Below, one piece after another: positions 1,392 through 63,600 of a DNA stretch of 64,000 bases (within the stretch, counting starts at the first letter, position 1; every line of letters starts with the position of its first letter). The notes under the pieces are model-generated. The model was given only the letters and a program-made list of their open reading frames with translations. It made no database searches and had not been told where the DNA came from. Position numbers and translations under genes: made by a program. Source of the stretch: Rhizaria sp. SCN 62-66 (taxonomy: Eukaryota); NCBI GenBank assembly GCA_001724265.1, contig MEDY01000094.1:1-64000 (forward strand), given 5' to 3'.

Positions 1392-3629
1392 ATGTCTTAC
1401 AATAGCGAATCGTCAAACTCAACGGCCGACCCCACAAACTTCAGCCCCTTTGGTCCCCCCTTGACCGAGGCCCGTCTGCCTTCCTGGGCCACTGAGCTTG
1501 CCCGCGAGGCAGAGTCGTCATCCGCATAGTCGCCATCTCTTAACGACCCGCCAAAGTTTCAGCCCGTGTCTCTCATGGGTCCCATCCCGGCCTCTTACCG
1601 CCCGCCTCGCACGATCCTGCCTTCCTCCAGCTCCTCCTCCGTCTCCGCGAGTGCAAGCAGTAACAGCGTACCACACGCGTTTGCTGCGACGTCTACGGGC
1701 TATGACGCGACCCCAACTGTGGCCCCGGCAGCGCAACACGCTGTTGCAGCGCGCCGGACGACTCCTGTCGACTCGAAGCCATTCAACTCCGCATCCTCCT
1801 CTGCGTCTGCGGCCGCGGCCGCTGCGGCTGCTGCCCAGAGGCGCGATCTCTTCTCCTGGAACTCTGTGTCGACGCGTCCGCCACTATTTACCAACCCTAA
1901 GGCGTTTTTGCACCCCCACGCCTACTCGGACACCGCTGTCGGCGCGCGACGCGGCGCCGCAGCGAGCTCTCTTACCCGGCCCGCCGCTCCCACCAACACA
2001 AACCGTGACGGCAGCAGCAGCGGCAGTGGCAGTGGCAGTAGTGCTAACGCTGGAGCGAGGCAAAGGCAGTCGGTGTTGCCTGCATCCCGCGCCCGCAACA
2101 AGACACACACTCCCGTTCACACTGCTCCTGCTGCTCCTGCTGCTGCAGCACCTGTGACTACAATTGCAAAGTCAGCGGCTGCGACTCCGAGCAAAGCCCA
2201 CAGCGGCCACGCCGGCGCGAGCGCGAGTGCGATGACATACGGCGGCGGTGGCGGCGGCGCTGGCGACGACGACGATGACGAGGACGACGCGGAACTCGCC
2301 ATGCACCACATGTTTCACTCAGGCGGCGCCGTCCCCCAGAGCGGCGCCATCCTCTCGAGCCAGCCCGCGCACAGCGGCGGTCCTCACGGCGCCGCTGGCT
2401 CTGGGGCAGCGGACCTCGACGACGACCCCGACGTGGGCATCGCGGCGCTCACAGCCGCCGCCGCCGCCGCCGCCGCCGCCTGCACGGTCACGGCTGGCGT
2501 TGCGCTCAAGACGCTGGGCGGCGGCACTGCCACACTCATCCACAAAACCACGCCCTGCGGCAACAACGCCGCCGCCGTGCACGCGGCCGCGGACGCGCTC
2601 GGCGACGCGAGAGCGAGCCCTGCTGTGAACGCTGCGGGGACCGGTGCGACTGCCGCGGCCGGGGCGGGGGCTTATGGTGTGAGTGGTGATGCCGCGAACC
2701 GGCTGCCGTACCGGTTCTCCGCGCCGGAGCTGGTCGATGAGCGTCCGCTGTACTTGCCCTCGGAGCTCGACGGCGGGTTCGTCGACCGCCGCAACGCGCG
2801 CGCACAGCAGCAACAGAGCAGCCACAGCAACCGCAACAGCGGCGCGAACCAGTTCGACTACAACGCGTACAGCAACGCCGGCAGCAACAGCAACAGCACC
2901 ATTGGCGTTCGTGGCAGCGGTATTTCGAGTATCTTCGGCTGGAACGGTCTGACGAGCAGTGCAAATGACCGGGACAGCTTGGCCGCCAGTGGCGCTCAGA
3001 CGAGCGGCGTCGCGGTCGCTGGCCGCCGCGCCGGCTCTGCGAAGTCCGCAAGCGCTACATCAAACGCAGCCCCCGATTTTAGTCAAAGTCAAAGCCAGAG
3101 CCAGGGCCAGGGCCAGGGCAATGCGCGGCAGTCCGCAGCCGCCGCAGCCGCAGCCGCCGCGGCGGAGGCTGCGCGCGCGGAGGCCGCGAAGGCCGAGGCT
3201 GAGGACGCGGGCACGCTGGCGCTGATCGCGGCGGCCGAGCGCGCGGCTGCCGCGTCCCGGGGCTTGCTGGCTCAGCGGCTGCAGGCGCTCGAGGCCAAGC
3301 ACCACGTCGCGCTCGTCCCGACCGCCGCGGGCAGGGGCGGGGCGGGCACTGCTGCTGCGGCGACGGCGGCGGCGGAAACTGTAGGGCCGGAGACGAGCAG
3401 TGAGGAGCCGGAACAGAAGAAGGCTGCGTACGGCAGGCGCAGCGGCCCTGGCACTGGCGGAAGCACTGGCGTGGGCGCGGGCACGCATGCTGGCGTCTCT
3501 CGGAGGGCCGCTGCGGCAAGTTTCAAGGCTGGACATGGAGACAGTGACGACGGTGATGATGATAAGGAGCCTGAGCTTGCGTTCCTGCGCAACAAGGGCC
3601 TCGTCACCAAGAGTCCAGTTCGGCGCTAA
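1392..3629 (+). CDS. Hypothetical Ala/Ser/Gly-rich protein (~745 aa if the in-frame TAG at 1527-1529 is read as sense)
   Basis: ATG 1392 (MSYNSES...) sits at the AT-to-GC transition. The ORFs 1314-1529 and 1566-3629 are in the same frame, separated only by TAG 1527-1529. Ends TAA. A probable 5'UTR intron donor GTATGT lies at 1295. An alternative start at ATG 1575 cannot be excluded. Confidence 0.6.
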
Positions 3630-3823
3630 TTCCGAGGACGATTTGACTCAGATATAGATATTTAACTAACACGTTACATTAGACAGATTTCATAAATAAA
3701 GACATCATTTTGCGATTTATAATAATCGTATTCGGATATGGCTTTAGGTAATTGACATCGTAACTAAGCTATGTAACAGTTGTATTCCTGCGTTGTCTCG
3801 CAACGCACCGATATGTAACAAAT

Positions 3824-4880
3824 TCAATACCCATCCCAGAGGTCCCCACCGACGCCGCTACCCCGCGCGTACTCACCGAGGCTATTCCCATCACGATCCA
3901 CGCCGTAGTAATCGCTATTGTAACTCTCGACCAAATGCGAGATGTCGTGCTCGTTCACGTGCACCTCGAGCCCCGTGTCCTTGATGACGTACTCGCACGC
4001 CACCTTGGCGAACTCGGACGACTTGGTCAGCGTTGCACGACGCACAACACTCGCAGCCCCCGCCGCGCCGTCGCCGTAGTCGTCGCGCGCGCCGGAGGTC
4101 TGCGGCCCGCTGAGGGCGATCTGCGTGGTCACGGCGTGCGTCCAGCCGACGCCGTACACGACCTCGGCCTCAGCCTCTGCCTGGGCCTCCGCCTCCGCTG
4201 CGGTCAGTCCGCCGGTCTCAGCCTCGTCCTTGGCCTCCGAGGCAGCATGTGCGGCGGCGGCGCCATTAGCGCGGACGTTGCCCACGCTTGCACTCGTAGC
4301 GCGCCAGGCGCTCCTGCCGCCGCGCCCGCCAGCCTTAGCGTATGACGAAGCTGGGGACAAAGACGCGGACGACGGCGCTGAGTTGGTGACGACGGCAGTG
4401 GCGTTGTACTCAACGGCGAGGGTCTTCAGCACAGTTGCCAGGAGCTGCAGCAGCCGCTGCCGCTGCAAGCCGAGGTCGGCAGACGACATCGCTGCTGTGT
4501 GTTGTTGTTGCTGTTGCTGATGCTGTTGACTCGCTTTGCTGGCGTAGATGCTGCCGGGGATGTACGCACCCTCAGCCGTGTACGCCGCACTGCGTGGCGC
4601 CGGGGGAGCGCCAGCAGCAGTGTAAGCAGCACCGCCTCGTCCCCCTGCTAAGGCTGACGCTGCCGTGCTGGCGTTGGGGCCGCTGAGCAAGTTCGCGAGC
4701 CCGTCGACGAGGACCACGGTGGCGTCTGCCTCGGCAACCGTGTCTACCAGCTCCTCGGTCAAAAGGGCGGTGAGTGCGGCGACCGTCGGCGCGGGCAAGC
4801 AGTGGATGCGCGCGAAGGTGCGGCTCAGGATGTAGTCGAGGCTCGACTTGTCGACAAGGTTGTCGTCATCGTTGTCATCG

Positions 4881-4957
<77 letters not shown>

Positions 4958-5698
4958 GTCCTCGTTGTCGTCCTTGTAGGGGCCAGCGCCACGGGCATCA
5001 CGCTGCTGCTGCTGTTCACAGCCTTGCTCACCGTCGCTCATCTTGCGTTGCTCCTGAGCATCGCGCCGTTGCTCACGGTCACTCGCGTGTCGCTGCTCAC
5101 GGTCAGCGCGTCTCTGCTCACGGTCGCTCTCGTGTCTCGCGACGAGCTCCCCGACCATCGCCGTCGCCAGTACCGTGCTGAACCCACTGCCCACGCCCAG
5201 GTCCACGTACATCACAGACGCGCCCAGCCCGCCGCAACGCCGTGGCAGCGCGGCCCGAACGGCGAGCGAATGTAGCGCGCGCGTCTTGCCGCTGCCGCGC
5301 GGCCCGAGCAGCTCGTAGAGCCCCGGCGTGAGGGCGAGCGCGCGCGGGAGACACAGGCGCGCCAGGGCCAGCGGGCGCAGCGCGGCGGGCGGGGAGAAGA
5401 GCGGGAGCGCGCGTGGGGGCCTAGGGGGCCGTGGGACGGCGAGCTGGGAAGATAGGGACACGGGCGCGGGCGCGGCGGGGTACAGAGAGATCGCGGGGCG
5501 GAGTGACGGACAGAGCGTTAGTGCGGCCTGCGAAACGAGCTCGGATACATCGTCGAAAGAGATGTCAAGGAGCTCAACAAGCTCAATCTAAGATGCAAAG
5601 AGGAGCTGGCTTGCGTCTGTGATACGAGCATATCGGAGCTTGGCTTTGAGGGTTGGAGAGGTCTTGAGACGCTCGACGGGCAGCGTAATCGAGGTCAT
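3824..5698 (-). CDS. RAD51B: RAD51 paralogue, RAD51B-like (624 aa with the in-frame TAG at 5590-5588 read through)
   Basis: Walker A GPRGSGKT, Walker B VVLVDG, LAVEYNATAVVTN, and a C-terminal GVGWTHAVTTQIAL...RRATLTKS...YVIKDTGL typical of RAD51B. The upstream in-frame segment from ATG 5698 (MTSITLPVERLKTSPTLKAKLRYARITDASQLLFAS*IELVELLDISFDDVSELV) resembles the RAD51B N-terminal helical domain. Ends TGA. Confidence 0.75.
4881..4955. repeat. (TCA)25 trinucleotide microsatellite encoding poly-Asp in the RAD51B-like gene
   Basis: Perfect TCA run read directly; it is GAT codons on the minus strand. Confidence 0.95.
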
Positions 5699-6325
5699 CC
5701 GCGGGGATGAGGGTTGCGCAGACAGATCCTGTGGGACTTGGAAGCTGAAATAAGAAGATAATTTGGAATAATCCGTGAAAGTGCGTCTTTCAAGTTATAC
5801 GAATCTCAGAAGCTCGTTTTGAGGTCCCATGACATCAGGATGGGCTCCGTTGCTGCGCGTCTGACTGGGCGCCAAAACGCTGGCCATCCAAATCCGCAGC
5901 TGAGTACAGTGATAGAACATAGTAACCCATACATTTAAGTTGAACTGTACTACTTTCAAATTATCAGCAACTTGAATTAAACGCCATCGTGCTATTATTG
6001 ATTGAGACCCAAATGCTATCGAGATATGCGCGAAATACACTTCGCCACCACATGTTGGTTTACAGTGACTTGCTCACAGTCTGTGGCGGCGAGCAGGGAC
6101 TGGAATCGAGCGAGCCCGCGACCCGAGTCGGGGCTGCGGGGGAGATGAGTTGGAGCACACTCGGGCCGTGTGGGAGACTGAGTATTGCGTTGCGTGTTTA
6201 CAATTGAGATGTGTATTCTAAGTAATTTGATTTTGGGCGAGACATGTGCTTGTTATACCTGTGTGACTGCGTGATGTGACGGCCGCCTCACCCGCTAACT
6301 CGCCCTGCGCTTTTTTTCTTTGTAG

Positions 6326-6729
6326 ATGTCTGACGACAAAGTTGAGACTATTGGTATCAAGGTCCGCTCTGCCCGCGGCGAGGAGGTACGTTAAGCTAAA
6401 CATTCATTGATGTCGCTTTCTATATTGTTGCTGTTTCCTTGTTCTACACCCGTCCGCTCCCCGAACTCACTCTCATGTTCCCGCCCTGCCTCTTTTCCCT
6501 CTCGCCCCGCTTCTCATTGTCTTCCCAGGTTCACTTCAAGGTGAAGCCCCAGACCAAGATGGACAAGGTCCTCAAGGCGTTCTGCGAGAAGGTCGACGTC
6601 GACGTGTCTTCTGTCCGTCTCACCTTCGACGGCCGCCGCGTTGAGGCCACCTCGACTCCCGCCGACCTCGGCCTCGAGAACGGCGACGTCATTGACATCG
6701 TCGAGCAGCAGGTCGGTGGCGCCTTCTAA
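6326..6729 (+). CDS. SUMO: SUMO (small ubiquitin-like modifier); exons 6326-6385 and 6529-6729
   Basis: Spliced product MSDDKVETIGIKVRSARGEE|VHFKVKPQTKMDKVLKAFCEK...RLTFDGRRV...TPADLGLENGDVIDIVEQQVGG-AF with the di-Gly motif. Phase-0 intron GTACGT...CCCAG at 6386-6528. Ends TAA. Confidence 0.93.
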
Positions 6730-7391
6730 GCGCCTCCCCGCTGACACACATGTTGTTTTGTTGGTTGGGTGAGCGCGGGAGCCGCCGAAGAGCGGAGGCC
6801 GCGCTGTGAAATGACGCCGGACGCCGCGGTGACCAGCTGCGGTGGACGGCCGAGTATGTCTTGTCGTTCCTTTGGCATCTATTTAGGGCTTATACAAAAA
6901 GCTTCTGTGATAATAAACACATCTATTGCAAACAGTAACACTTTTCTTATCTGTGAGATGTCACTTTTACGTTGAAACGAGATGTTTCAGCTTGATTTTT
7001 GACTTCATTTACCTGCGGACGATTGACAAGCCGTCGCGGTCACGCTGCCCGCGCTGGATTGCGCGCAACGGCGCGTTTCAAAAGAAGTGGCTCCTGCCAT
7101 ACCCTGGCCGTCATGAAAACATATATAGAAGCACATGTTAGAAAAATATTTTTTCTTTCTTTCCTGTTTTTTATATAGAATCTTTGTTGATCTACAGGTC
7201 TCTAGAGCTGCGCTTTTATCTATTGAAGCTCCTCTACAAATGCCTCCTCGCTCTTCACATTCTCTCGACTCTCTCTCACCACCGCCACTATTTTTCATCC
7301 TATCACGGTGTTCTCGTTATTTTTCATACGATTTTATTTTCTCAAAGTCTGACAGCACTTCACTCAGGCTTAGTTTTGATCACTAGAGATC

Positions 7392-10300
7392 ATGTTTCGC
7401 AGTTTGCGCCACCTCAAGCGTGGCTCTGGGCTCTTCTCGCCTTCGTCAGCTCTCTCAGCGCTTCCTACCTCGCTATCTGTCCCAGCGGCGCCCGCACGCC
7501 CCCTCGGACCGGAGCTCCCGCCTTGTCACGCCGCACCGCTCAGCACTGCCGCCGCCGCCCGCGCACTCGCGGCGAGCAGCTCCTCCGCGCCCGCCGTCTC
7601 CACAGCGCAGCACTTGCTCTTCGCCGCCAGCCGCCCCGTTCATTCGTACAATGGCGGCAATAGCGGCGGCCGCAGCTACGGCAGTTCGGGATCCTCGTAC
7701 TCGCACTCCCCGCCGTCGTCGGGCTACTCCAACCAATCCCCCGCCTCGAGATATGCCAGTCACAACAACAACAGCAACAGCAACGGCGCGAGCACGTTCG
7801 TCTCGAGCCACGTCACGATGGAGCGCGCCGACATCCTCAGCTACCTGGCGCGGCGCAACATCGTCTACAAAGACTATCCCGACAAGGTCGGCGTGATGGA
7901 CTGCCCGTTCTGCAAGCCGACGTACAACCGCCCAGACAACCAGTGGAAGCTGGCCATCTTTCCCAGCGGCGGCTTTAACTGCGTGCGCTGCGGCTCCTCG
8001 GGCAGTTGGTACGACTTCAAGCAGCGCCTCGGCGACCTCCCGGCAATCACCGACGCCCTGGACAACCCCGTCCCCGTGCACCCTCAGTCTTCCTACAACA
8101 GCGCCAGTAGCGGCAGCAAGTACGGCTCTAACGGCCCCCCCGCCTCTGGCGCGCGCCATGCGGGCGTAGCCGTGGGCACGGCCCCCGCGGCCGGCGGCGG
8201 CTACGGCCATAACGGCTACGCCGCGGCGTCGGCCCCGCTGTCTCAGAGTGAGGCCGCCTCGTGGGCCGCCTCGCTCGACGCGTTCCCGGACGTGTTGGCG
8301 TATCTGACCGGCGCCGGGCCGGGCCAGCGCGGGCTCGCGCGCGCGGTGCTCGACCTCTACAACGTCGGCGCCAAGCTGCACCAGTTTCCCGCGCCCTACA
8401 ACGCCAACTCGACCGGGAGCGGCGGCGGCAGCGGCGCGGTGCAGGGCACGGCGGCGGGTAACGCGGCGTCGCTGTCCAAGCTCGCCGCCGCGCCCGCCGC
8501 TCACGGCAACACCAGAGGGACCGCTGCTGTCGCGACTGTGAGCAGCGCTCAGGCCGGGAAGCCTGGCCAGGTGACGTGGATTGACCACCCCTGCGTCACG
8601 TTCCCCTGGGCGCGTGCACCGCTCGGCTCGCTGCGCTCCGCTCCTGCTGCCACTGCGGCAACAGCTGCGAACGATACTGGCGGCAGGATCATGATGTCGC
8701 CGCCGCCGAAGTCTGCGACCGCAACTGCTCCAGCCGCTTCAGTGACTGCGACTCTAGGCAAGACCTCTGCTGCGCATGCGAAGAACGCGTTCCAGTGCGT
8801 GCCGCTGCCGCCGTGCCCACGGAACCTCGAGTACGACCGCGTAAAGCTGCGGTCCATCGTTGACAAGTCGTCGATGCGTATCCTGCCCAAGGGCGGCGAC
8901 TGGGGCTTTTTCGGCTGGCACACGATCCCCGAGTCGGCGACCGAGATCATCATCACCGAGGGCGAATACGACGCCATGGCCGTGTGCCAGGCCACGGGCC
9001 GCCCTGCCATCTCGCTGCCCAATGGCTGCCGCTCTTTCCCCGTGCAGCTGCTGCCGTGCCTCGAGCGCTTCACCAAGATCACGCTGTGGCTAGACGACGA
9101 CGGGCCCGGTCGCGACGGCGCCGAGTCGATCGCCAAGAAGCTCGGCATGAGCCGCTGCCGCATTGTCGGCGCGCTGCCGTGGGACGCCGCGGGTGCTGCG
9201 GACGAGGCCAGCTACACGCCGCCCAAGGACGCCAACGACGCGCTGCGCATGCGGCTTAATTTGGAGAGCTTCGTCACGAACGCGCAGCCGTGCTCGCACA
9301 AGGAGATCGCGTCGTTCCCGTCATTCCGGCAGGACGTGCGGCGCATGTTCACGAACCCGAACGAACACGTGGGCGTGCCGCTGCCCAACATGCCGCACCT
9401 GCAGTCGCTCGTCAAGGGCCACCGCCGCGGCGAGCTGAGCATCTTCACCGGCCCCACGGGCGTGGGCAAGACGACCATTCTGGCTCAGCTCTCGCTCGAG
9501 GTGTGCCAGCAGAATGTCCCGACACTGTGGGGCAGCTTCGAGATCCGCAACCCGCGCCTGGTGCGCACGCTCATGATGCAGTACGCAGCGCACTTGGGCG
9601 TCGTGCTCAACACGGAACACGTCGAGAACTTCGACTACGTCGCCGACCGGTTTCAGGAGCTGCCGATGCACTTCCTCAAATTCTACGGCTCTTCGCCCGT
9701 GCAGGAGGTGCTTGACGCGATGGACTACGCCGTGTATGTGCACGACGTGCAGCACATCATCCTTGATAACCTGCAGTTCATGCTCTCTGGCCAGGGCAAG
9801 TCCGGCATGGACAAGTTCGACATCCAGGTACGCTTAACAATCGATATGACGACTTCACACTATCACTTTGAGGAACGAGTTTACCAGAGTATAGTATCTT
9901 ATCTCATTGCTTTATGTATTGTTTCTTTCATTCTGTGACTCTTTCGTTTAGGACAAAGCTCTGGAGTCGTTCCGCCAGTTCGCGTCTCAGCGTAATGTGC
10001 ACGTGTCCCTGGTCATCCACCCGCGCAAGGAGGCCGACAACTCGTCCCTGGGCATGTCCTCTGTCTTCGGCTCGGCCAAGGCAACGCAGGAGGCTGACAA
10101 CGTGTTCATCATTCAGTCGGGGCTGCCGCGCTCGCTCACCAAGCCGCTGGGCTTCGAGGGCAAGGGCAAGGGCGGCGGCGGCGGCAACGGGCGGCCCGAC
10201 CTTGCGCAGCACGGCGGGTACGACGACCCGCTCGTCGGCGAGGTGCTGGCGACCTTCTTCCGCACGCTCGAGCTGCGCAAGAACCGCTGGGACGGCGACC

Positions 10301-10755
10301 TGGGCGCGGTGCCGATGCGCTTTGACCGCGCGTCAAACCGGCTGTTCGAGCTGACGTCGGAGGACGTGCAAACTGGACTCGCGCCCTTTGTGGAGAAGCA
10401 CCGCAAGCTGAAGCAGATGGACCTCATCAAGCACATGCACCAGAACGCCAACGCGGGCGGCGCGGGCGCCGGGCCCAACAACCACAACGTGGTGCAGGGC
10501 TTCAACAACAACTCACCTGCTCACGGTCACCATCAACAGCAACAGCAGCCGCAATATGGACAGGAGATCCCCCTCGGCGGCTCCCCCGCTTCGGTGCCCG
10601 GCCAGCCCCCCGCGATGGGGGCGGCGGCCTTTGGCAGCGTCGTCGCGCCCGCTGCTTCCGCGCACGCCCCTGTCGGGCCGCCGAATAACGGCGGCAGGGT
10701 GCCAGTGGCCGCGCCCAAGCTGTACAACCCCACGATGGAGATTATCCTTGACTAA
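7392..10755 (+). CDS. TWNK: Mitochondrial Twinkle primase-helicase; exons 7392-9827 and 9952-10755
   Basis: Presequence-like N-terminus (MFRSLRHLKR), Zn finger CPFC...CVRC, TOPRIM EGEYD/LDDD/KDAND, and SF4 helicase motifs GPTGVGKT, HIILDNLQF, VIHPRK, GSAKATQEADN, KNR. Intron GTACGC...TTTAG at 9828-9951 is in phase. Ends TAA. Confidence 0.93.
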
Positions 10756-13535: not shown

Positions 13536-16500
13536 ATGAGTCAGACCCCCCCTCAGTCAAAGGGCTTGTGCGTCATGTCTCGGTCACTCAATGTGGGTAT
13601 GGCCGCGCTGGCCGCAGTATCTGCCACTTTACTGTGGCTGGCGTACTTGAACGCGTCCAGTTTGGCTCCCAACGAATGCGCTATGACGTACTTTGACGGC
13701 TCTCTGCACTCTCTCCCCAAGGCGCCCTTGCACCCACAGTACTCGCTGCAGGAGTTCAAGCTGAGCTCAGCGGCCTCTAGCGCAGACAACGTTATATCTC
13801 CACTCTCTATTGCGGCACTTTCTACCCCAATTCGCGAAGAGTACGTCGTGTTCGTGCCAGGCAACGGCGGACACGCCTTTCAGTCACGCTCACTCGCCAC
13901 TCGCATCTTGCATCTCCAGCGTGACCTGGCCACCTCCACGCACACTGCGCGCTCGCTTAAGTCCTCGGACGCCGACATTGAGCTTATCCGCACGTACCTG
14001 ACGAACGGACTTGCCCCTCATCTCTCTATCGCCGCGCAGGCCGACGGAAACGCGGGTAATACCACCTCAGTCGCGCGTGCTGACGCAGCAGACGTACCTC
14101 GTCTTCTGCCTGCTACGGTCACAATCCCCAGTCGCGTACACATCCGCGTCTTTGCGCTGCATTTTCGAGAGGAGCTGACTGCGTTATCGTCCCGCAAAGC
14201 GCTCGAACAAGCCCACTACACGGCGCAGTGTCTGCAGTATCTCACCACTCTGGCAGAAAAAAACAGCGTGGGCATCTCTGTCGTGGGGCACTCGATGGGC
14301 GGCGTTGTCGCGCTAACCGCTGCCAGTCTCCTCGACAACAGCACCAGCAGTATGAGCGCCTTGGAGAATGCCCCCTCGAGCTCTCTGTTTGCGCCGCTGC
14401 ACACTATTGTGACCGTGGGCGCCCCCACCGCGGCCCCTGTTGCGGGCGTCGACCCCGACGCGGCCGCTCTCTACGCCGATGCGCTCGCCGCAGTGCCGCG
14501 GCGCGCGTTTCTCGCCATTGCTGGCGGCGAGCGCGACCTGCAGTCGCCTCCGGAGCTCTCGCTGACTCCGGCTGCCACTGCTGCTGCCGCTGCTGCTGCT
14601 GCTGCTGCGACGACCGGTGCAAGGCTGTCGATATTCGCGTCCCCGGGCCCCACACTCGCCTCCGCGTCGGCGTCGGCATCGTCGCAGTGGCCCGCGGCCG
14701 CCGCGCCCGTTGACCACCAGTGTCTCGCGTGGTGCGCGCAGGTCACCGCTCCGCTGGCCGCCGTGCTTGTGCGCCGTGCAGTCCTCACAACAGCCACCGA
14801 GGGCGGCTCAACCGGGAGGGAGCCGTTGGTGCGGTCTGCGGCGGCGATGGCTGTCACTGGCGCGGCCGACGCCGTCTCTACCACAACCTCTGCTGCTGCT
14901 GCTGTGTTTCCTGTTGCTGCTGCTGCTGCGCCTGAGGCTGCTTCTCAGTCTCAGTCCCTGCGCTCAGTCGCTGACGTTGTCGCGGGGGCAGCCCGCGCCA
15001 TGTCGACCGCGGCGAAGACTGTTGTTCTCATTCCAGAACTCTCGCCAGCAACTCTCAAGTCATCCGCGCTGCTGAGCTCTGACGGTGGGAAAGCCGTCGG
15101 ACTGCATGCAGTGGCCCTGGGCCAGCTCCCAGCAACGAAGACTGTCGCTATGACCGTAGTTTCATCGGTGGTGGCGACTGGGCTCCGTCTCTGTCGCACT
15201 CAAAAGACTCAAGCCGCCGCCACTGCGAGTGATCAGCCTCTGAGCAAGGTCTGCCGTGTTGTGCCGACAACTGTGGCGTCTCTTCCCGCGGCGCGCGTGC
15301 CTCTCGGGATTGTGGGATGGGACAACACAGAGCTTTCTCCTGCTCGCGCGCTCACTGATGCCGACAACAACGCCAGCGGCCGCTACGCCGACGCCGAAGC
15401 AGCTGCAAGTACGACTATTCTTGTTGCGAGCTCTGCAGACGTTGCAACAACGCTGACCGCGCTCAATAATCACGCGAAGGTCTGTGCTGGCTGCAAGGAC
15501 ACTCTCGAGCTCGTGTTGCCCTCTGTCTCCATGTCACTGCTATCTCGTTCGCTTACGAATGCTGAGAGTGTTGCGCGGATTCTTGATCCGCAGCAAAACA
15601 GCTTTGTCGCGCTTGCTGAAAGGTTTGGTGTAACGTCAGACAAAATGCAACACAGCCAGCATATTTGGGCACTGCTATCAGAGCCTCTCAACAATAGTAT
15701 TGCGCTACGTGGTCCCATATTGCGCGCATCAGCTGCGAGCGTGGGCATTGACGCCGTGCTTGTCCGCCGTCGCCGCGGGCACCGCGCCTTGGGGTCAGAC
15801 GGCCTTGAACGGCGTGTGCTGCCTGAAGTCGCAGCGTCGGGACTCGCGGCCACGCTGCGGCTGCAGGGGTTGCCCGTGCCTGTCTCCGCGCTGACCGCAC
15901 TCGAGCCGGTTGACATTGCTCCGGCTCGCAATAACAGCGATTTTGTACGCGGGCACAGTTAGGGGCTCGCGTTTGCCTGGGACGGTCTTTCGCCTGCGTG
16001 GCATTCTCGTGAATACGCCGCACGCTCCGGCAATGGTCGCTCTAGCTCCAGGTTTCCTGTCATTCTTAGCGCGTTTACGCCCGCCAGCGGCTCAGTGGCT
16101 CCTGCGCCCTGGTCCTCAGTGCCCGTGCCCGCGCCTGTGCTGCTGGCGTGCTCGCTGCCGGCCGACTACAAGCACAACGCCACGTCCCCCGCCATGATGG
16201 TGCGGCTGCAGTGCCCGCTGGCGCAGCAGCCGCGCTGGGCGTTGTCGGCGCGCGACATGTCAACCTACGGCGCGGACCATGTGATTCGGGCCGAGCACGC
16301 GCTGCGCAGCAAGGCCGAGGTCGCGGTCTCCCCGCTACACACCCGCCACGCCGCCGGCGCCGCGTTGGAGCGCGCGGCCGGCAGCGGCAACTATTACACT
16401 GCGCTGACGTGGGAGCAGTCGAAGATGGGCGACGCCGTTGATCTCGCCACGATGCCGCGAAGTTACGTGGCGTTCAGCCAGAGTAAGACCACGGGGGTCA

Positions 16501-18755
16501 CCGCGCTGCTGCCGTCACCGCGCGCGCGGCGCGTTGCCGTGCCGCCCGCAGTGCCTCTTGCTGCGTCTGTTGCGTCGGCGAGTCGCGCACTTATCACGGG
16601 TGATAACTGCGCCACCCCGGCTGCGTTCCGTGTGACACATGTTACTTTGGAGCGTGATAACAACGGTGATGACAACGCTCGTGACGCTGAAGAGGTTGTG
16701 GCTGTCCCGCTGCCGTTGACGACTCTCGGAAAGTTTCTCTGGGCTGGCCTCCCCGCTCTGCTGCCGATGACTTTGCTCTGCAGCTTCATCCTTGCCTTTT
16801 TTGCGCTGCGCAATTCTGGCCACAAGCCCTTCAAACTTTGCAATGACCGCAATGCTTGCCGGAAGAGTCGCGCCACATGTTTGCTGCGCAGTATGTTTTT
16901 TGTAATCATGCTGGTTACTGTTGCATTCTGTGTTACTTTCGCGTTTTGCATTGAGCGACCAGAATATAACCAGTTTAATCTCGCAAAAAGGCTTCAGTCC
17001 TCTGTGGTTGACGAGTACTGGGGCTGGTCTCCGTCTCTCCGTGTCGCGAATGCTGGCTTTAGCGCGAACGAGCCCAATAACGAGTGGAGGCCTTTCATGT
17101 ACTTCACCGATAGTGGCGCGCTTGCGACAGATCTGACAAACTGTGTCATGACTGCCAACAATGCCCAATCATGCACCCGACGCGGTGGTGTAATGCTGTC
17201 GGTGTATGTGCTTATTGCTCGCATTGTTCACAATTACACCGCGCAGATTGGGTACATTTTGTTATTGTCCACTGCGATCGCGATTGCGCACGCTATTCAC
17301 ATGATAGCCCTGCCTGTGATCGCTGCGATTGGTTTCCTGCTGCTGCTTATCCCGCGGATCTTGCTTACCTCTGTCATGCACAAACTTCAAGGGGTACGCT
17401 CGCTTATGCGTGTGTGTGCATGGGGAGCTAGGGCTGTTGTTGCTATGCTTGGTGTGTTTGTTACTGTGTACAGTGGGTACACTGCCTTTCTCTGTATTGT
17501 CTTGTCTCTGCAAACCAACGCTGATTTTCTGCCCCTGCGTGCGCTGGTACCGCTCACTACGTTGTTCCCCGCTGCTAGCACGTTCATCAACCAAGCCTTC
17601 ATGCATGCGTTTGACGCTGTCCGCAGTCTTTTGCAAAACCATCTAAACATTGACTTTAATCATGCTGTACCGCTGCGTCTTCCTCGTATTCCCATTGTTC
17701 CCGTTTCGCAACTCACGGATATTTCAATTGTAATGTTGCTTTTCGCGGCGTTTGCGGTCTCGATGTTAGCTCTGTTTGCTCTTAGCAACCTTCGTCGCGC
17801 TTACACTGCGCCTGGCACGGGTTTGTCAAATCGCGCGCTTTCTTTGATTGATGCACGTCAGCGTCGGGTAACCCGTTTTTGGGCTTTGATTACGCTTGTT
17901 GTTGTCGTATTGTGTCTGTTACCGAATGTTGTCGTTGTCACGCCACGCGCGAGTCGTGACGCTGTTGCGGGCTTACCTGCCGGATCACAGCAGCTGCTGC
18001 AGTCACCGCTTGTTGCCACGCTTGCTGCGGACGCCGGCGTTGGAGGTAACTCTATTATTGCAGAGCGCATCATCTCGCTGCCGCATGTGGTAATGCGGGC
18101 ATTAAATGAAGTCACTCGAGATTATGGAGACATTATTTTGTTGACAACGACATATGACTCCATGACGGGTCGCGCCATTGTTCGCTCTGAAGTATTTGCT
18201 GGTGTTGGGCTATTGGGCCTCCTTATAATTGCGACGCTCGTGTCACTGTATTTTGAGTTGAAACTCCTCAGCAACTACCTCTTGGCACACAACACAAGCA
18301 ATCCTAAAAGTGACGCACCTTCGCATTCATTCCATGACGACATCGAGTATGTGGCCGACGCTGTCATCAAGGGCAGTGATGCTACCACCAGGAGTAAATC
18401 GCCGTCTCTGAAGAAATTGTTCGTTATGCTACTCTTTTTCAGCACCTTTATCAAAACCGTTATGGACAATGCTTTTTATGCCCGTGCTGTTGCTGATACC
18501 TCGCATTGGACTCAGCTTAACATGACGCATCTTGACTTAGCAATGCTCGTGGTGCTGATTGAGATGTTTGTAAATCTCGCGTTGGAACTCATTGCGGCGT
18601 TGCTGCCCGTGACTTCACAAATTCATCACGTGACAGAACTAACAATAGTTGTCATGATTGGTTTGATGTCTTGCTTAACTGTCACTTGCCGCAGGGCACG
18701 AGTGACGGATGCGGCATTTCAGGCTCTAGAGAAGCAAAAGCGCATTGCTTCTTAA
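13536..18755 (+). CDS. PGAP1: GPI inositol-deacylase PGAP1/Bst1-like (~1739 aa with the in-frame TAG at 15960-15962 read through)
   Basis: N-terminal TM, NECAMTY, VFVPGNGG..QSRSLA, lipase nucleophile VVGHSMGG, IAGGERD, VDHQCLAWC. The downstream same-frame ORF 16095-18755 supplies the multi-TM C-terminus expected for PGAP1. Only one TAG separates the two ORFs. Ends TAA. Confidence 0.8.
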
Positions 18756-39084: not shown

Positions 39085-40084
39085 TGCAAAAGTGGAGAAC
39101 GAGAGAAAGAGCGCGGGATAACGCTGGAGGGAGAGTTCTTAGTAAACGCAGTCAGTTGGATCGTGCGTTAGGGGGAGCGGGGGTGCGGCAGAAGCAAAAA
39201 AGCTATGACGCAAGGTAGCACTACTGTGTTAAACGCAGACAAGAGGTTGGATCTCTTGTAAACACTCAAACAGCGGTGGGGAAGGGCTAAAGAAACCAAG
39301 GTTGGACGTGGCTCCTTGTTAAGCTCTGCGCGGCGGGGGGGAGGGGACATTAGACAGAAAATAGAGACGCATGAGAAGATAAAAAAGGCATACGCACAAG
39401 ATCTAGCGCAGCAAATAAGTCGAAATATCCTTGCAAATGAAAAACCAGCTCATGCAATGAGTAGAGACGTCCCAGCAGACTTGTCTCTTTAAGCGGAAGC
39501 TCAGCACAGCACTCCGCGCGTAGCCATTCAAAATGCATTCGAATGTAGGCACTTGCTCTCATGCATTGTTGCCAATAATTACACAAATATAAAGAACAAT
39601 GAAAGACCTCGGAGGGTTCTCCCAGTGGAAATCCCCGATGACCCTCGCACAGCGCGCAATTCACCTGCGAGTCAAGACAAGATTCAGTCCTGGACCGGTC
39701 TGTCTCGCGGAGAGGGGGAGTACGACACAGAAAATGACCGTGAGACAATCATTTTAGCGAACCAGTCGGCCACTCAACCATGTGGTGTCGAATCGCGAGC
39801 ATATCCAGCGCCACCAACCAATCGTGCAAGTGCATACAATCTCGTGAATCTGTTCTTACTATCGCTAATCTATATTCACAGCTTATCGAGCATGCTGCAG
39901 ATTTCGATAAGACCATAAACTCGCTTCATATCTTCTCCTGCTGAGCTCACTTCTTAAACCCCTCTCTGTCGTTCATTTCGACCTCTGATGCGCTGACCCG
40001 TTACACTCCAGTCCGCTCCAGACGTCTCGAGGAGGGTTCTTGCTCGCCTTTCTTGCTTTTGTTGGTGCCTTTTTAGCTTTCCCG

Positions 40085-55083: not shown

Positions 55084-56333
55084 TCACCGCACTTCCCTGC
55101 CGTGGATGGTGTACTTGTCGTAGGTCTTGGCCGGGTCGTAGACCTCCCAGCGCGTGGCAGGGAAGATGTGTTTGTTGCGCTCGTACCAGGCGCGCGTGAG
55201 CACCTTGCCAGCGTGCGACTCGTCCTTTTCCACGCGCGCGTCGCCTAGCAGGCGCACGTCCTCGTGCACGTCAAAGCAGAATAGCGGGCCTGACTTGCCG
55301 CGCGCCTTTGTCACGATCAGATCGTGGAACGTGTAGTGGTGGGGGATGATCAGGTCCTCCTTGATGTACATCATCGACTCAGCCGAGAGCTTGCGCAGCT
55401 CGCTGAATCGGTCCGAAAGCGTCGCGCGCACCTTGTCCAGGAACTGCTCGATCGTGGAGCCCTTTGTGACGCGGATCACGTTGCGGTGGCCCGAGCCGTC
55501 CCAGTACGAGTACACGATCTCGATGACCTCCTTCTTCTCCGCCTCGACTTTGGCCGCCCATTGCGCCTCCAGCGTCCGCCGCAGCGCCGCCTCCTCCTCC
55601 TCGCGCGCGCGATCGGGCAGGAAGTCCGTCGCCGCCGTGGGGTCCTTGCTCACAGTCACCTTGCCCGCAGGCTTGTTCGCGGCAGGCTTGTCGCTGTCAG
55701 CCTCTGCGCTCGCCACAGCTGCGGCGGTCGCCTCCGCGGCCGGCTTGGACTTGGCCTTGCTCTTGGGCAGCGGGAGCTCGAAGTCGGCGTCGCCGTCGTC
55801 GCCATCTGCATCGAACGACAGGAAGCTCATGTCCTGTTTCTGCTGAGCTGCGCGGTGGCGCTTCGCGGCCTGGGCGATCTCGGCCTCGGCGGCGGCCGCG
55901 GCGGCCGCGGCCTGCGCGGAGGCGGCCTCGGCGTTCTCGACAATCTGGCGCTGCTGCTTGTACGCCTCTGCGGTCATCAGACCGACGGTGGCGGACTTAA
56001 ACTGGCTCTCGAGGAACGCGTCGTGAGTCGCGAACTTGTCCTCTGCACACAAAAGCAAAGCAATGAAGCATGATGTCATTTTATGGTAAGTGTGGAGAAA
56101 AAAGTCGTAGCGCATGTCTCAAAGATAATAGTTCAAATTTAGATAGCAGAGTACAAGTTTGGGAGAACTTGAGTGAGTTTTGTCGACATACCAGTGAGCA
56201 TGAAGGATGACTTCGAAGCCTCGTTCTTGATGTCGGCCTTGCGGCGCTCAAGCTGCTCAACTTGAGCAGCGCGCTGCTTCTCAAGCTGGCGCACGCGCTC
56301 AGCATTGGCCTTAGTACCCTTGTACTCGGCCAT
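55084..56333 (-). CDS. FAM50: FAM50/XAP5 circadian/splicing-associated protein; exons 56333-56192 and 56042-55084
   Basis: MAEYKG start, [71 protein letters not shown]. Intron GTATGT...TGCAG at 56191-56043. Ends TGA. Confidence 0.93.
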
Positions 56334-56989
56334 AGAAGCAGAAAGACACTGCAACGGCAGCGAAGAACAGCGTTTGTCATGGTGAGTAAGATAAGGGGGG
56401 AGCGAAGGAACAATGAGATATGTGAAAGCATAGATAAAGATAAAATGCCGCAACAACTCGCCTAACAGTACAACACGTTATAAGGAGTCTGAAAATGTTG
56501 CTTGAAGCAATATGATGGAGAGCAAAATTTCGCGTAATCGGACGAAATAGAGCGTGATGTCCAGATCAACATAGTACTGTGGGGAAGAGGGACCCTGAGA
56601 ATCAAGGACAGATCAATGACTGATATGAAATTAAATACGGATCATGGCCTATATGACACGCTAATATCAACCATCCAGTCATATGACTATTTAACGAAGA
56701 ATAGACTGTGATCGAGAGTGCTTTTTCGAGACAGGTCTTGACGGCTGCCACTACCACACCGCGCAGCAAACCGACGCCGTCCGAGGCAAGTCTGACCTCA
56801 ATGATCTATAGCGTCTCTATTGTCGGTAAGAATCGCATTTAAGCGGTGCATCCGTATTTTTTTAGAAGCAAACTTTATACTCGCTTTATTCGATATCTCT
56901 CCTTATCGCTTTCACATGTCTACGACTTCCTTACTCACCCGCTCCCGGCTTTTCCCCAACCATCCTTGTTCCTCGCTTTTCTACAGCCT

Positions 56990-57193
56990 ATGTTCCTGGA
57001 CAAGCGCAACGACGAGAACAACGCTCCTCCTTCCAGCAGTGGCTTTGGCCCCTTTATCGCGATTGTGCTGGCGATCCGCTTCCTCCCCACTGCGTGGGCG
57101 TGGTGGAAGGGCGGCGACAAGTACCTCACCACCGGCGTCACCCCCGAGCAGTTCGCCGCCGAGGAGAAGCGCCTCAGCAACCGCCCCATCTAA
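56990..57193 (+). CDS. Small 67-aa single-TM protein (weakly Tom5-like)
   Basis: ATG lies 3 nt after the acceptor CTACAG (5'UTR intron from GTAAGA ~56826). Strong coding-type codon bias. Hydrophobic FIAIVLAIRFLPTAWAWW. Ends TAA. Confidence 0.65.
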   Translation: MFLDKRNDENNAPPSSSGFGPFIAIVLAIRFLPTAWAWWKGGDKYLTTGVTPEQFAAEEKRLSNRPI

Positions 57194-58023: not shown

Positions 58024-58911
58024 TTAGACCGCGCCCGCCGCGCCGCCGCGCCCGCCGCGGAAGCCGCCGCGCCCGCCGCGATAGCCGCCGCGACCCTCGC
58101 CGCCGGCGTTGTTGTTGTTGTGGTGGTGGTAGCCGCCCCGGCCGCCGGCGCCGCCGCGGGCCCCGCCGCGGCCACCGCGGAAGCCGCCGCGGCCCTCGCC
58201 GTAGTGCGGGCGGTCGTGGCCCTCGCGCGCCTGCGCGGCGTGCGCAGCCTGGTCCTCCTTGACCTTGTCGAGGACCTCCTCGGACACCTGCATGTACCTG
58301 CAGAGGGAGGTGGCGACAGAGAGTGCAACAACAACAAAAAAGAGATTTACAGAGTGATGATGAGAATAAATCAATATGAAAGTTTGTCATAATACCGACG
58401 GAAGTTTGATTGATGTGTTCGTTCAGTTTCTCCTCCAACTGTGACCTTGATGGCGAGATATAGGGCGGGGAGTGACGTACTTGATGGTGGAGCCGCGGAT
58501 GAAGACCTCGGAGAGCTGCCAGAAGCGCTGGCCGTCGCGCGAGGTGCAAATGGCCTCCTTAAGGTGCACGTTCATCCACGCGTCGACGGAAACGAGGTAG
58601 CCGTTGAATGTCTCGCCGTTGCGGAGCTCAATGAGCTAAGAAGCGAAGCAAGTGAGTGAGAGCGAAGATAGATTGAGTGAGCGAGAGAGTCGATCAGAGC
58701 AGAGGAGAAAGTATGCGGGAGAGAGATGATATTAAGTGCAGAGTGGACGTGATGCGTACCAGAGAGTTCCCGAGCGCAGCGCGCAGGAGGTGAAGGGGAA
58801 GCTGTGTGCAAAGCGCAGCGCAGGGGAGAAGACAGAAAGGGAGGAAAGTTAGAAAACGTTCGATTGCGAGAAGTGTGTGTGGTGAGAGTGGGTCACTGCG
58901 AGACGTACCAT
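58024..58911 (-). CDS. LSM4: LSM4 (U6 snRNP / decapping Sm-like protein); exons 58911-58909, 58801-58760, 58635-58481, 58297-58024
   Basis: Spliced [79 protein letters not shown] plus an RGG tail. All three introns are GTACGY...AG and in phase. Ends TAA. Confidence 0.93.
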
Positions 58912-59324
58912 GAATCGAAGAGTCTAACTCAGTAATTACGATCGAAAATGGGATGTCGACACAGCTGAGACGCCGGAGGATCTACAACTGACTGTGTGTG
59001 GGGAAGAATATCGGGGGAAGAGCGAGAACCACATTCGAACAAGGTGAGACAACCGACAGGCAAGAGAACGACAATCAAAGCACATCTATCGACTTTTGAC
59101 GGAACACAAATAAAACCATAAAGATAAAACGCCTCAAAAAAACTAGGACAATATGAAAGCATGATATACCAGTGAACGATCGGACTGGGAGAAGCTCTTT
59201 CTTGGCACGATTCGCTGGACCACGGTCGCTTCCCGTTGGGATGCGCAAACGCGGGTGAGGTGCAACCTTGTCTTTGGTATCCCGGTGTCAACCATCCTAC
59301 GTTTGCGTAGAAACTGTGTTCGCG

Positions 59325-59950
59325 ATGAAGCCCTCTACTTTGGCTACTCTCCTCGTTTTTGTTTTGGCTGCTGTGATGCAGGACGTGTGGCGCGCCAACA
59401 ACCTTGCTGCCCAGGCGCAGATCCGTCAAGAAGAGACCGCAGTCGCCGCAGGCACCTCTACCCCCGGTGTCGTGTCCTCTGTGTCCAACTACCTTGACGC
59501 CAGCTCTGGCCAGCGCGTGCACGTTGCCTTCTGCTCCAGCTGCGGCTTCGGCAACAAGTACATCGAGCTCAAGAGCGCGATCGAGAACTCGGTGCCGGGC
59601 ATCGAGGTCTCCGGCTCCACCTACCCTCTCCCGCTCTGGAAGACCGCCGTGTCTTGGCTGCTTTGGCTTGCCGCGCCGCTCATCTACTTTGGCCACGAGA
59701 CCTTCTTTGCTGCCACCAACCTCCCCATGCCCGAAATTGTCAAGAAGATCAAGGTACGTTCTCGCATTGCATTCCTATGAAGCAACCACTTATGTGGAGA
59801 ATACCTCGATCATATCATCTCTCATTGCACGTTGGTAGATGTATTGTGTATTGCACTCTGCTTATTTTTTTATCGTCTCTTTCTATGCTATTTTCTTATC
59901 ACGACCTCTTGCTACCTTCTCTGTTGTTCTCTTCGTTCCCCGAATCGCCC

Positions 59951-59989
<39 letters not shown>

Positions 59990-60186: not shown

Positions 60187-60687
60187 GCGGGCGCATCACG
60201 GTGGACAGCGCGCTCTTTCTTTGTCTCTCTTTGGCCGGGGCTGCGAGGAGGGAGCGGGCGACGAGTCTGGTAATGCTGCCGATGTGGTAACGCTCACAAA
60301 GTGACTGACTGCGAAGTGACGAGCTGTGATGTAACCTTGTGAGTGGACACGGCGTATTGTGGCCATGCGCTCGATGATTCGCGAGTAAGTTATCAAAATA
60401 CAATAGATCTCTTTTACTCAAAGAATAATCAAACAATGAACATTGTGTATACGCTGTGATGTGACAACAAAGTGTCATCAACACTGATGGAGGCAGACTA
60501 GATAGTGATAGAAAATGGTACAGTACAATCTTAAACTCGAGGCTAAAGTAACAAGGAAAAAAAATGTTCTTCATAAATCAAAACAAAACGACCATGCATA
60601 TCAACACTAGGATTGAAATTCCATGGCACTAAAAAACGTGTGGAGTTACTCATGAACGCCTACTCGCAGCACAGTTAAGGAACGGAC

Positions 60688-63600
60688 TTAGCGACGACCG
60701 GTCTTGCCATTCTTCGCTGGCGTCCCAAACGCGGAGCTCCCCGCGCCCGCACCGACACCAACGCCGGCGCCCGCAGCGAAACCGCCCGCGCCGCCCTTGT
60801 GCGGTGTCGGCGGCAGCGACCGGCCCCCGCGGCCCGCGGCCCCCGCCCCCGACGCAGCCGCCGCCGCCGCCGCCTCCGCCTCGGCCGCGGCGGCCGCCTG
60901 CTCCTCGGCAACAACAGCTGCCGCGGCCGCCGCGGCCGCCGCGCCGCCGCCGGTCTTGCCCAGCTCTGCAAGCCCGCGGACGTGGAGGCGCAGCTCGCGG
61001 CGCGCGTCGAGCAGCGTCGAGGCCGCGCCCCAGCCGCCCGCCGCCAGACGCGCCGCAGCATAGAGGCGCGCCACAGCGGGCGCCAATGCGGCAACGGCGG
61101 CCGCGGGCGACGGCGCGGCCGCGGCGCGAACGGCGGCGGCCGCGGACAGGGACGCCAGCGCGCGAGCCGTGTTCGTCAGCAAAGGCAGCGGCGGCGCGGC
61201 AGAGGCAGAGGCGACAGAGACGGCGGCGGCAGAGGAAGAGGAGGAGAAAGGCAGAGAGCGGCGGTGCGGCGAGTGGCTCCGAGCAAGATTGTGCGGGTTG
61301 GAGTTGCCGCCGCCGCTGCCGCTGCCACTGCCGCTGAAGAGCGAGGTGACGGTGTTATGGGGCCACGGCCACGTGTCGCTGAAGCTCTCGTCCCCGCCAA
61401 TCGCGGCAGCAGCGTTCGCGGCGGCGGAGGCTATGTCAGCGGCGGCCGCAGAGACCACGTCGAAGTGACCGTGGGCCAAAAGGTGCGACTAAGACCGTGA
61501 AGTGTACGACTGCGGGCGCGACGACGGCCGCGAGCGTTGACCGTGAGCAGCAGAGTGACCGTGGGCCCCGTGATAGTGATGATGAGGGTGATGCATATGC
61601 TGCTGCTGCTGTTGCTGCAAGAGCAGCTGCGCCTGCATCTGCGGCAGCGCGGCGCGGTCGAGCAGCCCCGCGCTGGCGCTCTCCAGCGCCGCCAGCGTGC
61701 TCGCCAGCGCGCCCCGCGGCGGCGCCAGCGGGGCCCGGTGCACCGCCGGCAGCGCGGCCACGGAGCACTGCTGCGCGCACGAGAGGATCCAGCGCTCCAG
61801 CTCCGCCGCGGTCTCCGCGGCCGCCGCGGCGGCACCCTGGAACTGCTGCTGGTGTTGTTGTTGTTCCAGTTGCGGCGGCGCTGACTGGTCCCACAAGTCG
61901 CCCGCCAGCCCAGCGCCCGCGTTGGCGCCGGAGACCGCGGAGGCCTCGTCGTCAGCAGCGGCGGCCTGGAGCCTGGAGACGACCTCGGCGACGAGCGCGC
62001 GCGAGGCCGCGATCTCGGACGCGGCGGCGCTCTCCTCTGCGGGCGCCAGCGCGGTAGCGGCCGAGATGAGCGCGCTGAGGCAGCCCACCAGCACGGCCAA
62101 CGCGGGCGCCGCGGCAGAGGCTACGGCCGAGTCCGCGGCCGAGAGCGAGGGCAGCGCAGCCGCGACGGGCACAGGAGTCGCGGAGGTCGCGCTGTGAGCG
62201 CGCAGTGCGTGGGGGGGCGGCGGCGGGGCGGCGCCGGAGAGAGTGCTGGTGTCGATGCCGACGAGCAGCGTCGACACCACGTGCGAGTGCGCGCCAGTCG
62301 CACCGGCGCCGGCGCCGCTGCCGCTGTAGGCGACGCGCATGGGCTGGCCGCTGTGGCCGTGCGACTGCGAGTGCGCGTGCGACAGAGCAAGAGTGAGAGC
62401 CAGACCCGACGACTGCTGCTGCTGCTGCTGGCCAGTCTGCTGCCCATGTCGCATCTGCTGTTGCTGTTGCTGCAGCTTGACTGTGGTGAAGGCCGACTGC
62501 ACGAACGCCCTCGCGGCAGCGGGCGCGGGCAGCTCAGTCACGTACGCCAGCGCCATCGCCGCCGCTACGGCGCGCTTCTGCGCCTTGTACGCCAACACGC
62601 CGGCGAGATCGTCAGTGTTGACGTCTGCGTCCGCGTTACCGGCGCCGTCGCCGTCGCCGTCGTCGTCGCTGTCGCTGTCCGAGGAAGGCGGCGCGCCGGG
62701 CCCCGCCGCCGCGAGCGCGGCCGCCGAGGCCGCCGTGACGACGCACGCGCCCGGGAGCGCCCACGCCGGCGCCGGTCCGCCTGCTGCGGCCGCAGCGGCG
62801 GCGGCCGCGGAGGCCGGATCGCACAGCGCTGACGCAACCGTGACTGCAGCTTCGGACGCGGCCAGCGCGAGCGGCAGCGCAAGGGCCCACAGCCGCTCGG
62901 CGCTCGCCTCGTCCGCAGCAGCAGCAGCGGCGGCGGCGGCAGCGGCACTGGCGGAAGTGGAAGCACTGGCATGGTTCGGGTTGGCGTTGCCGTTGGTGTT
63001 TATTGTCGCGCCGCTCATGTCGGTGGTAAGGTCGCCGCCCCAGTCGCCCGAGGCCGCGGCCGCAGCGGCGCGCGAGTACTCGCCCAGCGAGGCGGGCAGG
63101 TCGCTGCCTTCGACGGCGGCAAGCCGGGCAGCGGCGGACGCGGCGGCCGCCTGGGCCGAGACCGCGGCGGCGGTGGCCGCGGCGAGGCGGCCGAGCGCGC
63201 CGGAGCCCGCGCTGCCGCAGCAGTCGTCGCCGTCAGGCGAGCCGTCGCCGTTGCCGCTGTTGTTACTGTTGTTGTTGTTGCTGCTGCTGAGCTCAAAGTG
63301 GGAGCGCGTATCACGGTGCAACAGCGACTGCGAGTGAACATGCGACTGCGGCTGTGCGGGCGAGACTGGGTCAGAGCCGAGCAGCGCTGCGAGCGTGTTG
63401 ACGGTCTCCACCGCGGCGGCCACGGTGCGCGGCAGCTGCCAAAGCAACAGGTTCGGCTCGTCGCCCCCGCAGTCAGCGCCCTTGCCGGCGGCACTCGGGG
63501 ACTGGCTGCCGTTCGCCACGGCAACGGGCGACGGCGAGTGCGACAGCCTGGGATCGTTGTCGCCTGATAGGGCGAATGAGGCCGATAAGTCGCGCACCAC

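Follow-up and report, generated by a model that had tools for sequence, protein, structure and literature searches.

We analysed a stretch of 64,000 nucleotides (nt) from the contig MEDY01000094.1, assigned to Rhizaria sp. SCN 62-66 (positions 1 to 64,000 of the forward strand; hereafter the window), in which four protein-coding genes each contain one in-frame TAG codon. An earlier note on this DNA had reported the four TAGs and taken them as signs of a nuclear genetic code in which UAG is a rare sense codon. We re-read the sites in the sequence and in the translations, and the positions and neighboring codons given for them were exact in every case. Where an open reading frame (ORF) is described below as joined, the TAG was read as a sense codon. 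The four sites and their genes are as follows.

TAG 1, 1527-1529, + strand: GCA TAG TCG, codon 46 of the Ala/Ser-rich low-complexity gene g2
Gene g2, 1392-3629, + strand: 745 codons including the TAG, TAA stop, no Pfam family
TAG 2, 5590-5588, - strand: TCT TAG ATT, codon 37 of the RAD51-paralog gene
RAD51-paralog gene, 3824-5698, - strand: 624 codons including the TAG, TGA stop
TAG 3, 15960-15962, + strand: AGT TAG GGG, joins the 815-codon and 930-codon ORFs of the PGAP1-like gene
PGAP1-like gene, 13536-18755, + strand: N-terminal anchor and PF07819 lipase domain before the TAG
TAG 4, 61491-61489, - strand: TCT TAG TCG, within the long low-complexity gene g17
Gene g17, 60688-63999, - strand: more than 1,103 codons, 5′ end beyond the window, TAA stop, no Pfam family

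Coding sequence around the four TAGs

Codons were counted in 15 exon or gene models totaling 16,542 codons. The in-frame stops inside these models are four TAG, no TAA, and no TGA, and UAG occurs at 0.24 per 1000 codons. The claim that internal TAA and TGA are absent therefore holds over all 16,542 codons, and no frameshift was found in the same models. An ORF scan with TAA and TGA as the sole stops revealed no fifth convincing internal TAG and none near the 3′ end of any gene. A TAG at 12969 was considered as a fifth site and rejected; it lies in a 5′ leader, with the signal-peptide Met of its gene downstream. The ORF scan agreed with the earlier observation that the VPS13-like gene, at 6,464 codons, contains no TAG. 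Three of the four TAG genes have a G+C content at third codon positions (GC3) of 0.59-0.74, vs. 0.80-0.89 in most other genes of the window.

The frame stays open for 699, 587, 930, and 266 codons after TAGs 1 to 4, respectively. The sequence following each of the four has a G+C content (GC) of 0.62-0.68 and a GC3 of 0.66-0.81, with no drop in GC. After all 16 ORF ends at TAA or TGA (one of them the intronic TGA at 9936, and two from uncertain small ORFs), another in-frame stop is reached in 1-23 codons and the GC of the next 150 nt is 0.31-0.60. We also scored codon usage as log-odds, with the score trained on seven Pfam-supported genes, none of which is a TAG gene. Over both whole flanks of all four TAGs, the score is above zero in the TAG frame and below zero in the two remaining frames; thirteen stretches past true stops score mostly negative. 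Scores are near zero in the last 100 codons before TAG 3 (-0.06) and before TAG 4 (-0.03). A score of 0.554 was obtained for the 45 codons that precede TAG 1; 88% of 240 coding windows score at least as high, vs. none of 480 off-frame windows and 1.6% of 438 intergenic windows. The 36 codons preceding TAG 2 have a score of 0.36, which 93% of 301 coding windows attain, as do 4.0% of 554 intergenic and none of 602 off-frame windows. The 266 codons after TAG 4 score 0.553 in frame vs. -1.15 and -0.76 out of frame. UAG is located inside coding sequence, with signal on both sides, at all four sites, and the TAGs sit within continuous coding sequence more than chance would give.

The RAD51-paralog gene is predicted from its sequence to encode a RecA-type ATPase core with a Walker A motif, i.e., RAD51B or another RAD51 paralog. 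The Walker A (GPRGSGKT) is at residues 131-138, there is no ATG between the TAG and this motif, and the first Met past the TAG is at about residue 164. A functional RAD51 paralog must therefore start upstream of the TAG. The match to Pfam Rad51 is 22.0 bits, exactly at the cut-off of 22, and residues 124-174 match RadA, RAD51B, XRCC3, and XRCC2 chains (E 4e-5 to 4e-3). The claim that read-through restores a RAD51B N-terminal domain was not borne out, as the N-domain is recognized by neither Pfam nor PDB sequence searches; a helix-hairpin-helix domain like that of human RAD51B may nonetheless span the TAG. A single-sequence AlphaFold2 model of the N-domain is weak (mean predicted local distance difference test, pLDDT, of 50) and places helices at 15-23, 29-34, 37-44, and 48-62, hence to either side of residue 37. 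The gene also contains a tract with about 36 Asp codons (GAT/GAC; window 4400-5100, - strand). This poly-Asp tract varies between samples, with single-base gaps at 5085-5090 in contigs from other samples (X4 and X5).

In the PGAP1-like gene, the ORF upstream of TAG 3 matches the PGAP1 alpha/beta hydrolase family (PF07819) over residues 110-419 (E 1.4e-23, 84 bits, cut-off 24.3) and contains the GxSxG serine in GHSMGG. One strongly hydrophobic window is found before residue 809 and 13, partly overlapping, after it. PGAP1/Bst1 proteins are GPI inositol deacylases, and a C-terminal multi-pass membrane domain is typical of them. For the lipase-plus-multi-transmembrane architecture proposed for the joined gene, the lipase domain before the TAG is clear and the hydrophobic windows after it may represent the membrane domain; the part after the TAG has no Pfam match or homologue, and an Atlas look-up with this C-terminal part returned no usable match. 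There is no AT-rich spacer at TAG 3 (GC 0.67 upstream and 0.64 downstream). The protein database stores the two halves as separate proteins (P0124 and P0003). A GTACGC located 15 nt before TAG 3 is identical to the 5′ splice site of the Twinkle gene described below. GTACG[CT] occurs 78 times on the two strands of the window together, so its presence near TAG 3 is probably due to chance. In the two low-complexity genes, the AT-rich leader of g2 stops at the ATG at 1392, and the 266 codons after TAG 4 in g17 contain no Met at all.

The TAGs were also compared with other sequencing runs. This comparison covered 19.9 kb of the window, including sites 1 to 3, and used assembled contigs, in which a minor second allele could go unseen. 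Contigs of a run from another study in 2025 (X4) align without differences at 771-1701 and 5295-6553 and carry TAG 1 and TAG 2, respectively, and a contig from another study in 2017 (X3) aligns without differences at 15198-16621 and carries TAG 3. Assembly error at sites 1 to 3 was therefore rejected, the TAGs being unchanged in contigs of other studies and years; the earlier note had named CAG at these sites as the sign of such an error, and the independent DNA runs carry TAG. Contigs of polyA RNA map to 5035-5457 and 16190-16425, i.e., past TAG 2 and past TAG 3, respectively. In the RNA run, the listed differences are G>A at three places, none of them at a TAG.

Proposed readings of UAG

UAG is probably decoded as an amino acid in this organism, with UAA and UGA still acting as stops. 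Read-through or a sense reading was the best explanation of the tests that we made, and to this extent the proposal of the earlier note stands; its arguments from the restriction to TAG and from a Gln-like context proved weak. We infer both that the four TAGs are translated and that this reading is valid genome-wide. UAG would be an inefficient terminator at which ribosomes insert an amino acid, presumably because a tRNA with the anticodon CUA is present and/or eRF1 has lost its recognition of UAG. Termination would occur solely at UAA and UGA, and UAG would be a very rare codon. A search for tRNA genes and Rfam families (including rRNA) across the 64-kb window found none, and the eRF1 gene is not within the window.

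The gene ends agree with this reading in part. Among 13 solid genes, 10 end in TAA, three in TGA, and none in TAG; this count leaves out another two to four small ORFs of doubtful status. It differs slightly from the previous tally of 13 TAA and four TGA, which likewise had no TAG. The TGA at 9936 is intronic and not a terminus. TAA is the main terminator despite a coding GC3 of about 0.8. As a baseline we used the EFHC1 orthologues of relatives with at least 50% identity, whose termini are TAA in 21, TAG in five, and TGA in two of 28; the relatives likewise end mostly in TAA.

The earlier note favored Gln from the context of the sites, but among the tripeptides of the window's proteome Gln ranks only 11th of 20 for the four contexts. 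SQS occurs 11 times vs. 42 for SSS, 30 for SAS, and 25 for SGS, and Ala, Ser, Leu, Gly, and Thr rank above Gln through composition alone. The case for Gln is limited to precedent and to the mutational proximity of TAG to CAG.

Several observations weigh against a sense UAG. The basis for it is four codons, 13 termini, and one 64-kb contig. From the EFHC1 baseline of 5/28, the lack of TAG at 13 termini is only mildly unusual (P of about 0.08). With the codon usage of the window, 73% of single-base nonsense changes produce TAG, and four TAGs out of four have a P of about 0.29. The relatives of the window detected through EFHC1 have 85, 82, and 62-65% identity. The two closest (82-85%) have no in-frame TAG in 3.4 kb each, and in the 62% relative a TAG located six codons before the TAA is possibly a genuine terminator. 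TAG 1 is the weakest of the four sites, because another ATG follows it at a distance of 16 codons. At TAG 3, an in-frame 18-nt stretch (GTACGC...TTAG, 15945-15962, + strand) would remove the TAG if spliced. Among the polyA RNA pieces listed none spans a TAG, with more than 13,000 pieces beyond those listed. A PDB search with the N-domain of the RAD51 paralog matched a single, unrelated repeat protein, and there was no Pfam match. The homologue search with the RAD51 paralog gave no match, its candidate list probably swamped by the poly-Asp tract. The downstream ORF of the PGAP1-like gene, searched against 1.84 billion representatives, matched only itself, and a 1,201-residue stretch centered on TAG 3 returned nothing beyond the two halves from the window itself. 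None of the four TAGs is spanned by an aligned homologue, and no residue can be inferred from conserved columns.

If UAG were sense, the organism could belong to an unsampled eukaryotic lineage early in the capture of this codon. UAG would have gone from gene ends and, read by a new tRNA-CUA, be reappearing as a sense codon mostly in genes of weak bias (about 0.2 per 1000 codons). The contexts are Ser/Ala-rich, and the residue could be neither of those seen so far, Gln and Leu. We regard this more specific scenario as speculative and unlikely. If true, it would be a natural snapshot of codon capture vs. the ambiguous intermediate in a GC-rich nuclear genome. More broadly, an organism with UAG off its gene ends yet rare inside its genes would reveal the course by which a stop codon disappears and is captured anew, and would help to test the codon-capture and ambiguous-intermediate models. 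There is also a practical consequence, as metagenome pipelines split or truncate the genes of this organism, e.g., the PGAP1-like gene stored as two proteins.

Alternatively, UAG may have a dual meaning. It would remain a stop in other genes, and a weak suppressor or near-cognate tRNAs would read through it at the four sites, whether the read-through is programmed or marks an ambiguous intermediate. In favor of a leaky stop are the extreme rarity of UAG (4 in 16,542 codons), its absence from strongly biased genes such as VPS13, and the weak significance of the missing TAG at 13 termini; at sites 3 and 4, both truncated and extended isoforms could be meaningful. We nevertheless consider it unlikely. 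Known read-through motifs include UAG-CARYYA and UGA-CUAG, and the 3′ contexts of the four TAGs (TCGCCA, ATTGAG, GGGCTC, and TCGCAC) share nothing and fit neither. Local folds at the TAGs are no more stable than those of shuffled sequence (z of 0.32, -0.22, -0.22, and 1.59). The four sites thus have neither a shared 3′ context nor a stable downstream structure of the kind that signals programmed read-through. A stop at codon 37 of the RAD51 paralog would leave a peptide of 36 residues, and decoding at TAG 2 must therefore be efficient.

Under the standard code, the four TAGs could be genuine nonsense alleles that a clonal population carries in genes that are decaying or that it can do without. 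The restriction to TAG had been put forward as an argument for reassignment, but it is also expected under nonsense mutation, given the 73% of such substitutions that yield TAG here. The weaker codon bias of the TAG genes fits such an origin as well, and RAD51 paralogs and PGAP1 are non-essential in some organisms. However, nonsense mutation would have knocked out four of some 13-15 genes of a compact genome in which 16,542 codons contain no frameshift, TAA, or TGA, codon usage is intact over 266-930 codons downstream of each TAG, and the TAGs at sites 1 to 3 are identical in samples of 2015, 2017, and 2025 from three studies, a persistence of ten years. We therefore find nonsense alleles quite improbable.

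A further explanation is the restoration of the reading frame by mRNA editing, with UAG converted in the transcript to UGG (adenosine-to-inosine, A-to-I, as in filamentous ascomycetes) or to CAG. Fungal A-to-I editing is described as preferring U at position -1 and hairpin loops, and as correcting premature UAG in 71 Fusarium pseudogenes (PMC11156358, PMC10776026), and these properties speak for editing here. As in the window, the ascomycete cases described have genomic in-frame UAG in otherwise intact genes; they differ in being stage-specific, in involving <1% of genes, and in occurring in non-flagellated fungi (PMC11156358, PMC10776026). The UAG is unpaired in the minimum-energy folds at all four sites, but these folds are no better than those of shuffled sequence. 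One gene in four would need editing, far above the fungal level, and the axonemal EFHC1/DM10 gene in the window suggests a flagellated organism and not an ascomycete. None of the three G>A differences listed for the RNA is at a TAG, although the RNA pieces listed do not span the TAGs. Editing thus appears highly improbable.

Last, we give very little credence to a mixture of ordinary causes, in which TAG 1 would be a stop in a 5′ leader (an ATG follows 16 codons later), TAG 3 would lie in a tiny in-frame intron (15945-15962, 18 nt and thus divisible by three, beginning with the GTACGC of the Twinkle 5′ splice site and similar to the GTACGT of the cyclin gene), and TAGs 2 and 4 would be nonsense alleles or chance, since the leader before TAG 1 scores as coding, the 18-mer is much shorter and richer in GC (0.61) than the real introns (124 nt with a GC of 0.35 and 140 nt with a GC of 0.30), a motif such as GTACG[CT] that occurs 78 times can readily fall within 30 nt of some TAG, and four separate coincidences would be required.

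Comparison with known UAG reassignments

If the sense reading of UAG is real, it is the same kind of change as the known reassignments of UAG only. A full-text literature search on protists, from wastewater or elsewhere, found no report of such a code that matches this organism. In the fornicate Iotanema spirale, UAG is described as Gln, with UAA and UGA as stops (PMC5304391). As reported there for Iotanema, UAG in the window would be decoupled from UAA, nuclear genes contain in-frame UAG, and UAA predominates among the stops (PMC5304391). The meaning of UAG in Iotanema was inferred from many UAGs at conserved columns, whereas here there are four codons, none of them at an alignable conserved column. 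The Twinkle-type mitochondrial helicase in the window argues against a fornicate identity.

For the rhizarian exLh (Sainouroidea), in which UAG is Leu, 384 UAGs are reported in 71 genes, or about five per gene (PMC5304391), vs. four in about 15 genes and 16,542 codons here. The termini given for exLh are 56 UAA and 15 UGA only, all of its in-frame stops are UAG, and UAG is rarest in highly expressed genes (PMC5304391). The TAGs of the window likewise fall in genes of weaker codon bias. Unlike exLh, the contexts in the window give no hint of Leu.

Phyllopharyngean ciliates are reported to have reassigned UAG to Leu or Gln in three independent origins; UAA has become fixed in them as the stop of preference, and their genomes contain suppressor tRNAs (PMC11687900). 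These are UAG-only reassignments, as our favored reading of the window would be. The ciliates are described as having widespread sense UAG (PMC11687900); in the window, UAG is rare, GC is 51-73%, and the two verifiable introns measure 124 and 140 nt. The very low frequency of UAG and the GC-rich genome set the window apart from the known UAG-only codes.

Some further observations were made on the EFHC1 relatives. Loci with at least 50% identity have no in-frame stop in EFHC1, barring an apparent intron in one (L027). The 62% relative (L004/L005) has TAGs in leaders only, apart from the TAG six codons before its TAA. One of its two loci (L004) is part of a 619,686-bp metagenome contig with a GC of 0.53 and likewise TAA-rich termini. 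Three distant homologues (42-44% identity) have TAGs aligned to E, K, and K (L044:587, L072:896, and L074:539, respectively), and probably come from other lineages whose variant codes are known. When prokaryote genome contigs were scanned for a mis-binned relative, one unrelated contig with 39% identity was returned. An Atlas look-up with EFHC1 yielded nothing that pointed to a taxonomic group.

Gene content and source of the contig

The contig is nuclear DNA of an intron-poor and presumably flagellated eukaryote. The window has a GC of 51-73% and contains long intron-free ORFs on both strands. Pfam matches include a Twinkle-type primase-helicase, the PGAP1-like lipase, a UDP-sugar pyrophosphorylase, and a cyclin (N and C parts), as well as a three-repeat Myb protein, the axonemal EFHC1/DM10 protein from which we take the organism to be flagellated, XAP5, and the weak RAD51-family match. 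Only two introns are verifiable in the window, in the Twinkle and cyclin genes, and both are AT-rich. A search of the window for repeated motifs found no specific repeat. Features other than the TAG genes are as follows.

Twinkle gene, 7380-9827 plus 9952-10755, + strand: 1,083 codons after intron removal
Twinkle intron, 9828-9951, + strand: 124 nt, GC 0.35, GTACGC...TTTAG, joins the primase and helicase ORFs
VPS13-like ORF, 19744-39138, - strand: 6,464 codons, no intron, no TAG, GC3 0.86 (very strong codon bias)
Cyclin intron, 43386-43247, - strand: 140 nt, GC 0.30, GTACGT...ACAG, joins the cyclin N and C domains
Small ORFs from codon-usage score, 6400-6729 (+), 56139-56477 (-), 56843-57193 (+), 58024-58386 (-), and 59259-59780 (+)

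Four DNA runs from three studies (2015-2025), all bioreactor or wastewater metagenomes, each contain at least 80% of the sampled words of the window, and a polyA metatranscriptome contains 22% of them. The organism thus recurs in wastewater and bioreactor data of several studies, and material for tests of its genetic code exists. The five small ORFs listed above (102-173 codons) belong to no Pfam family but have coding-type codon usage, with scores of 0.5-1.0, and may be small genes or exons outside the gene models.

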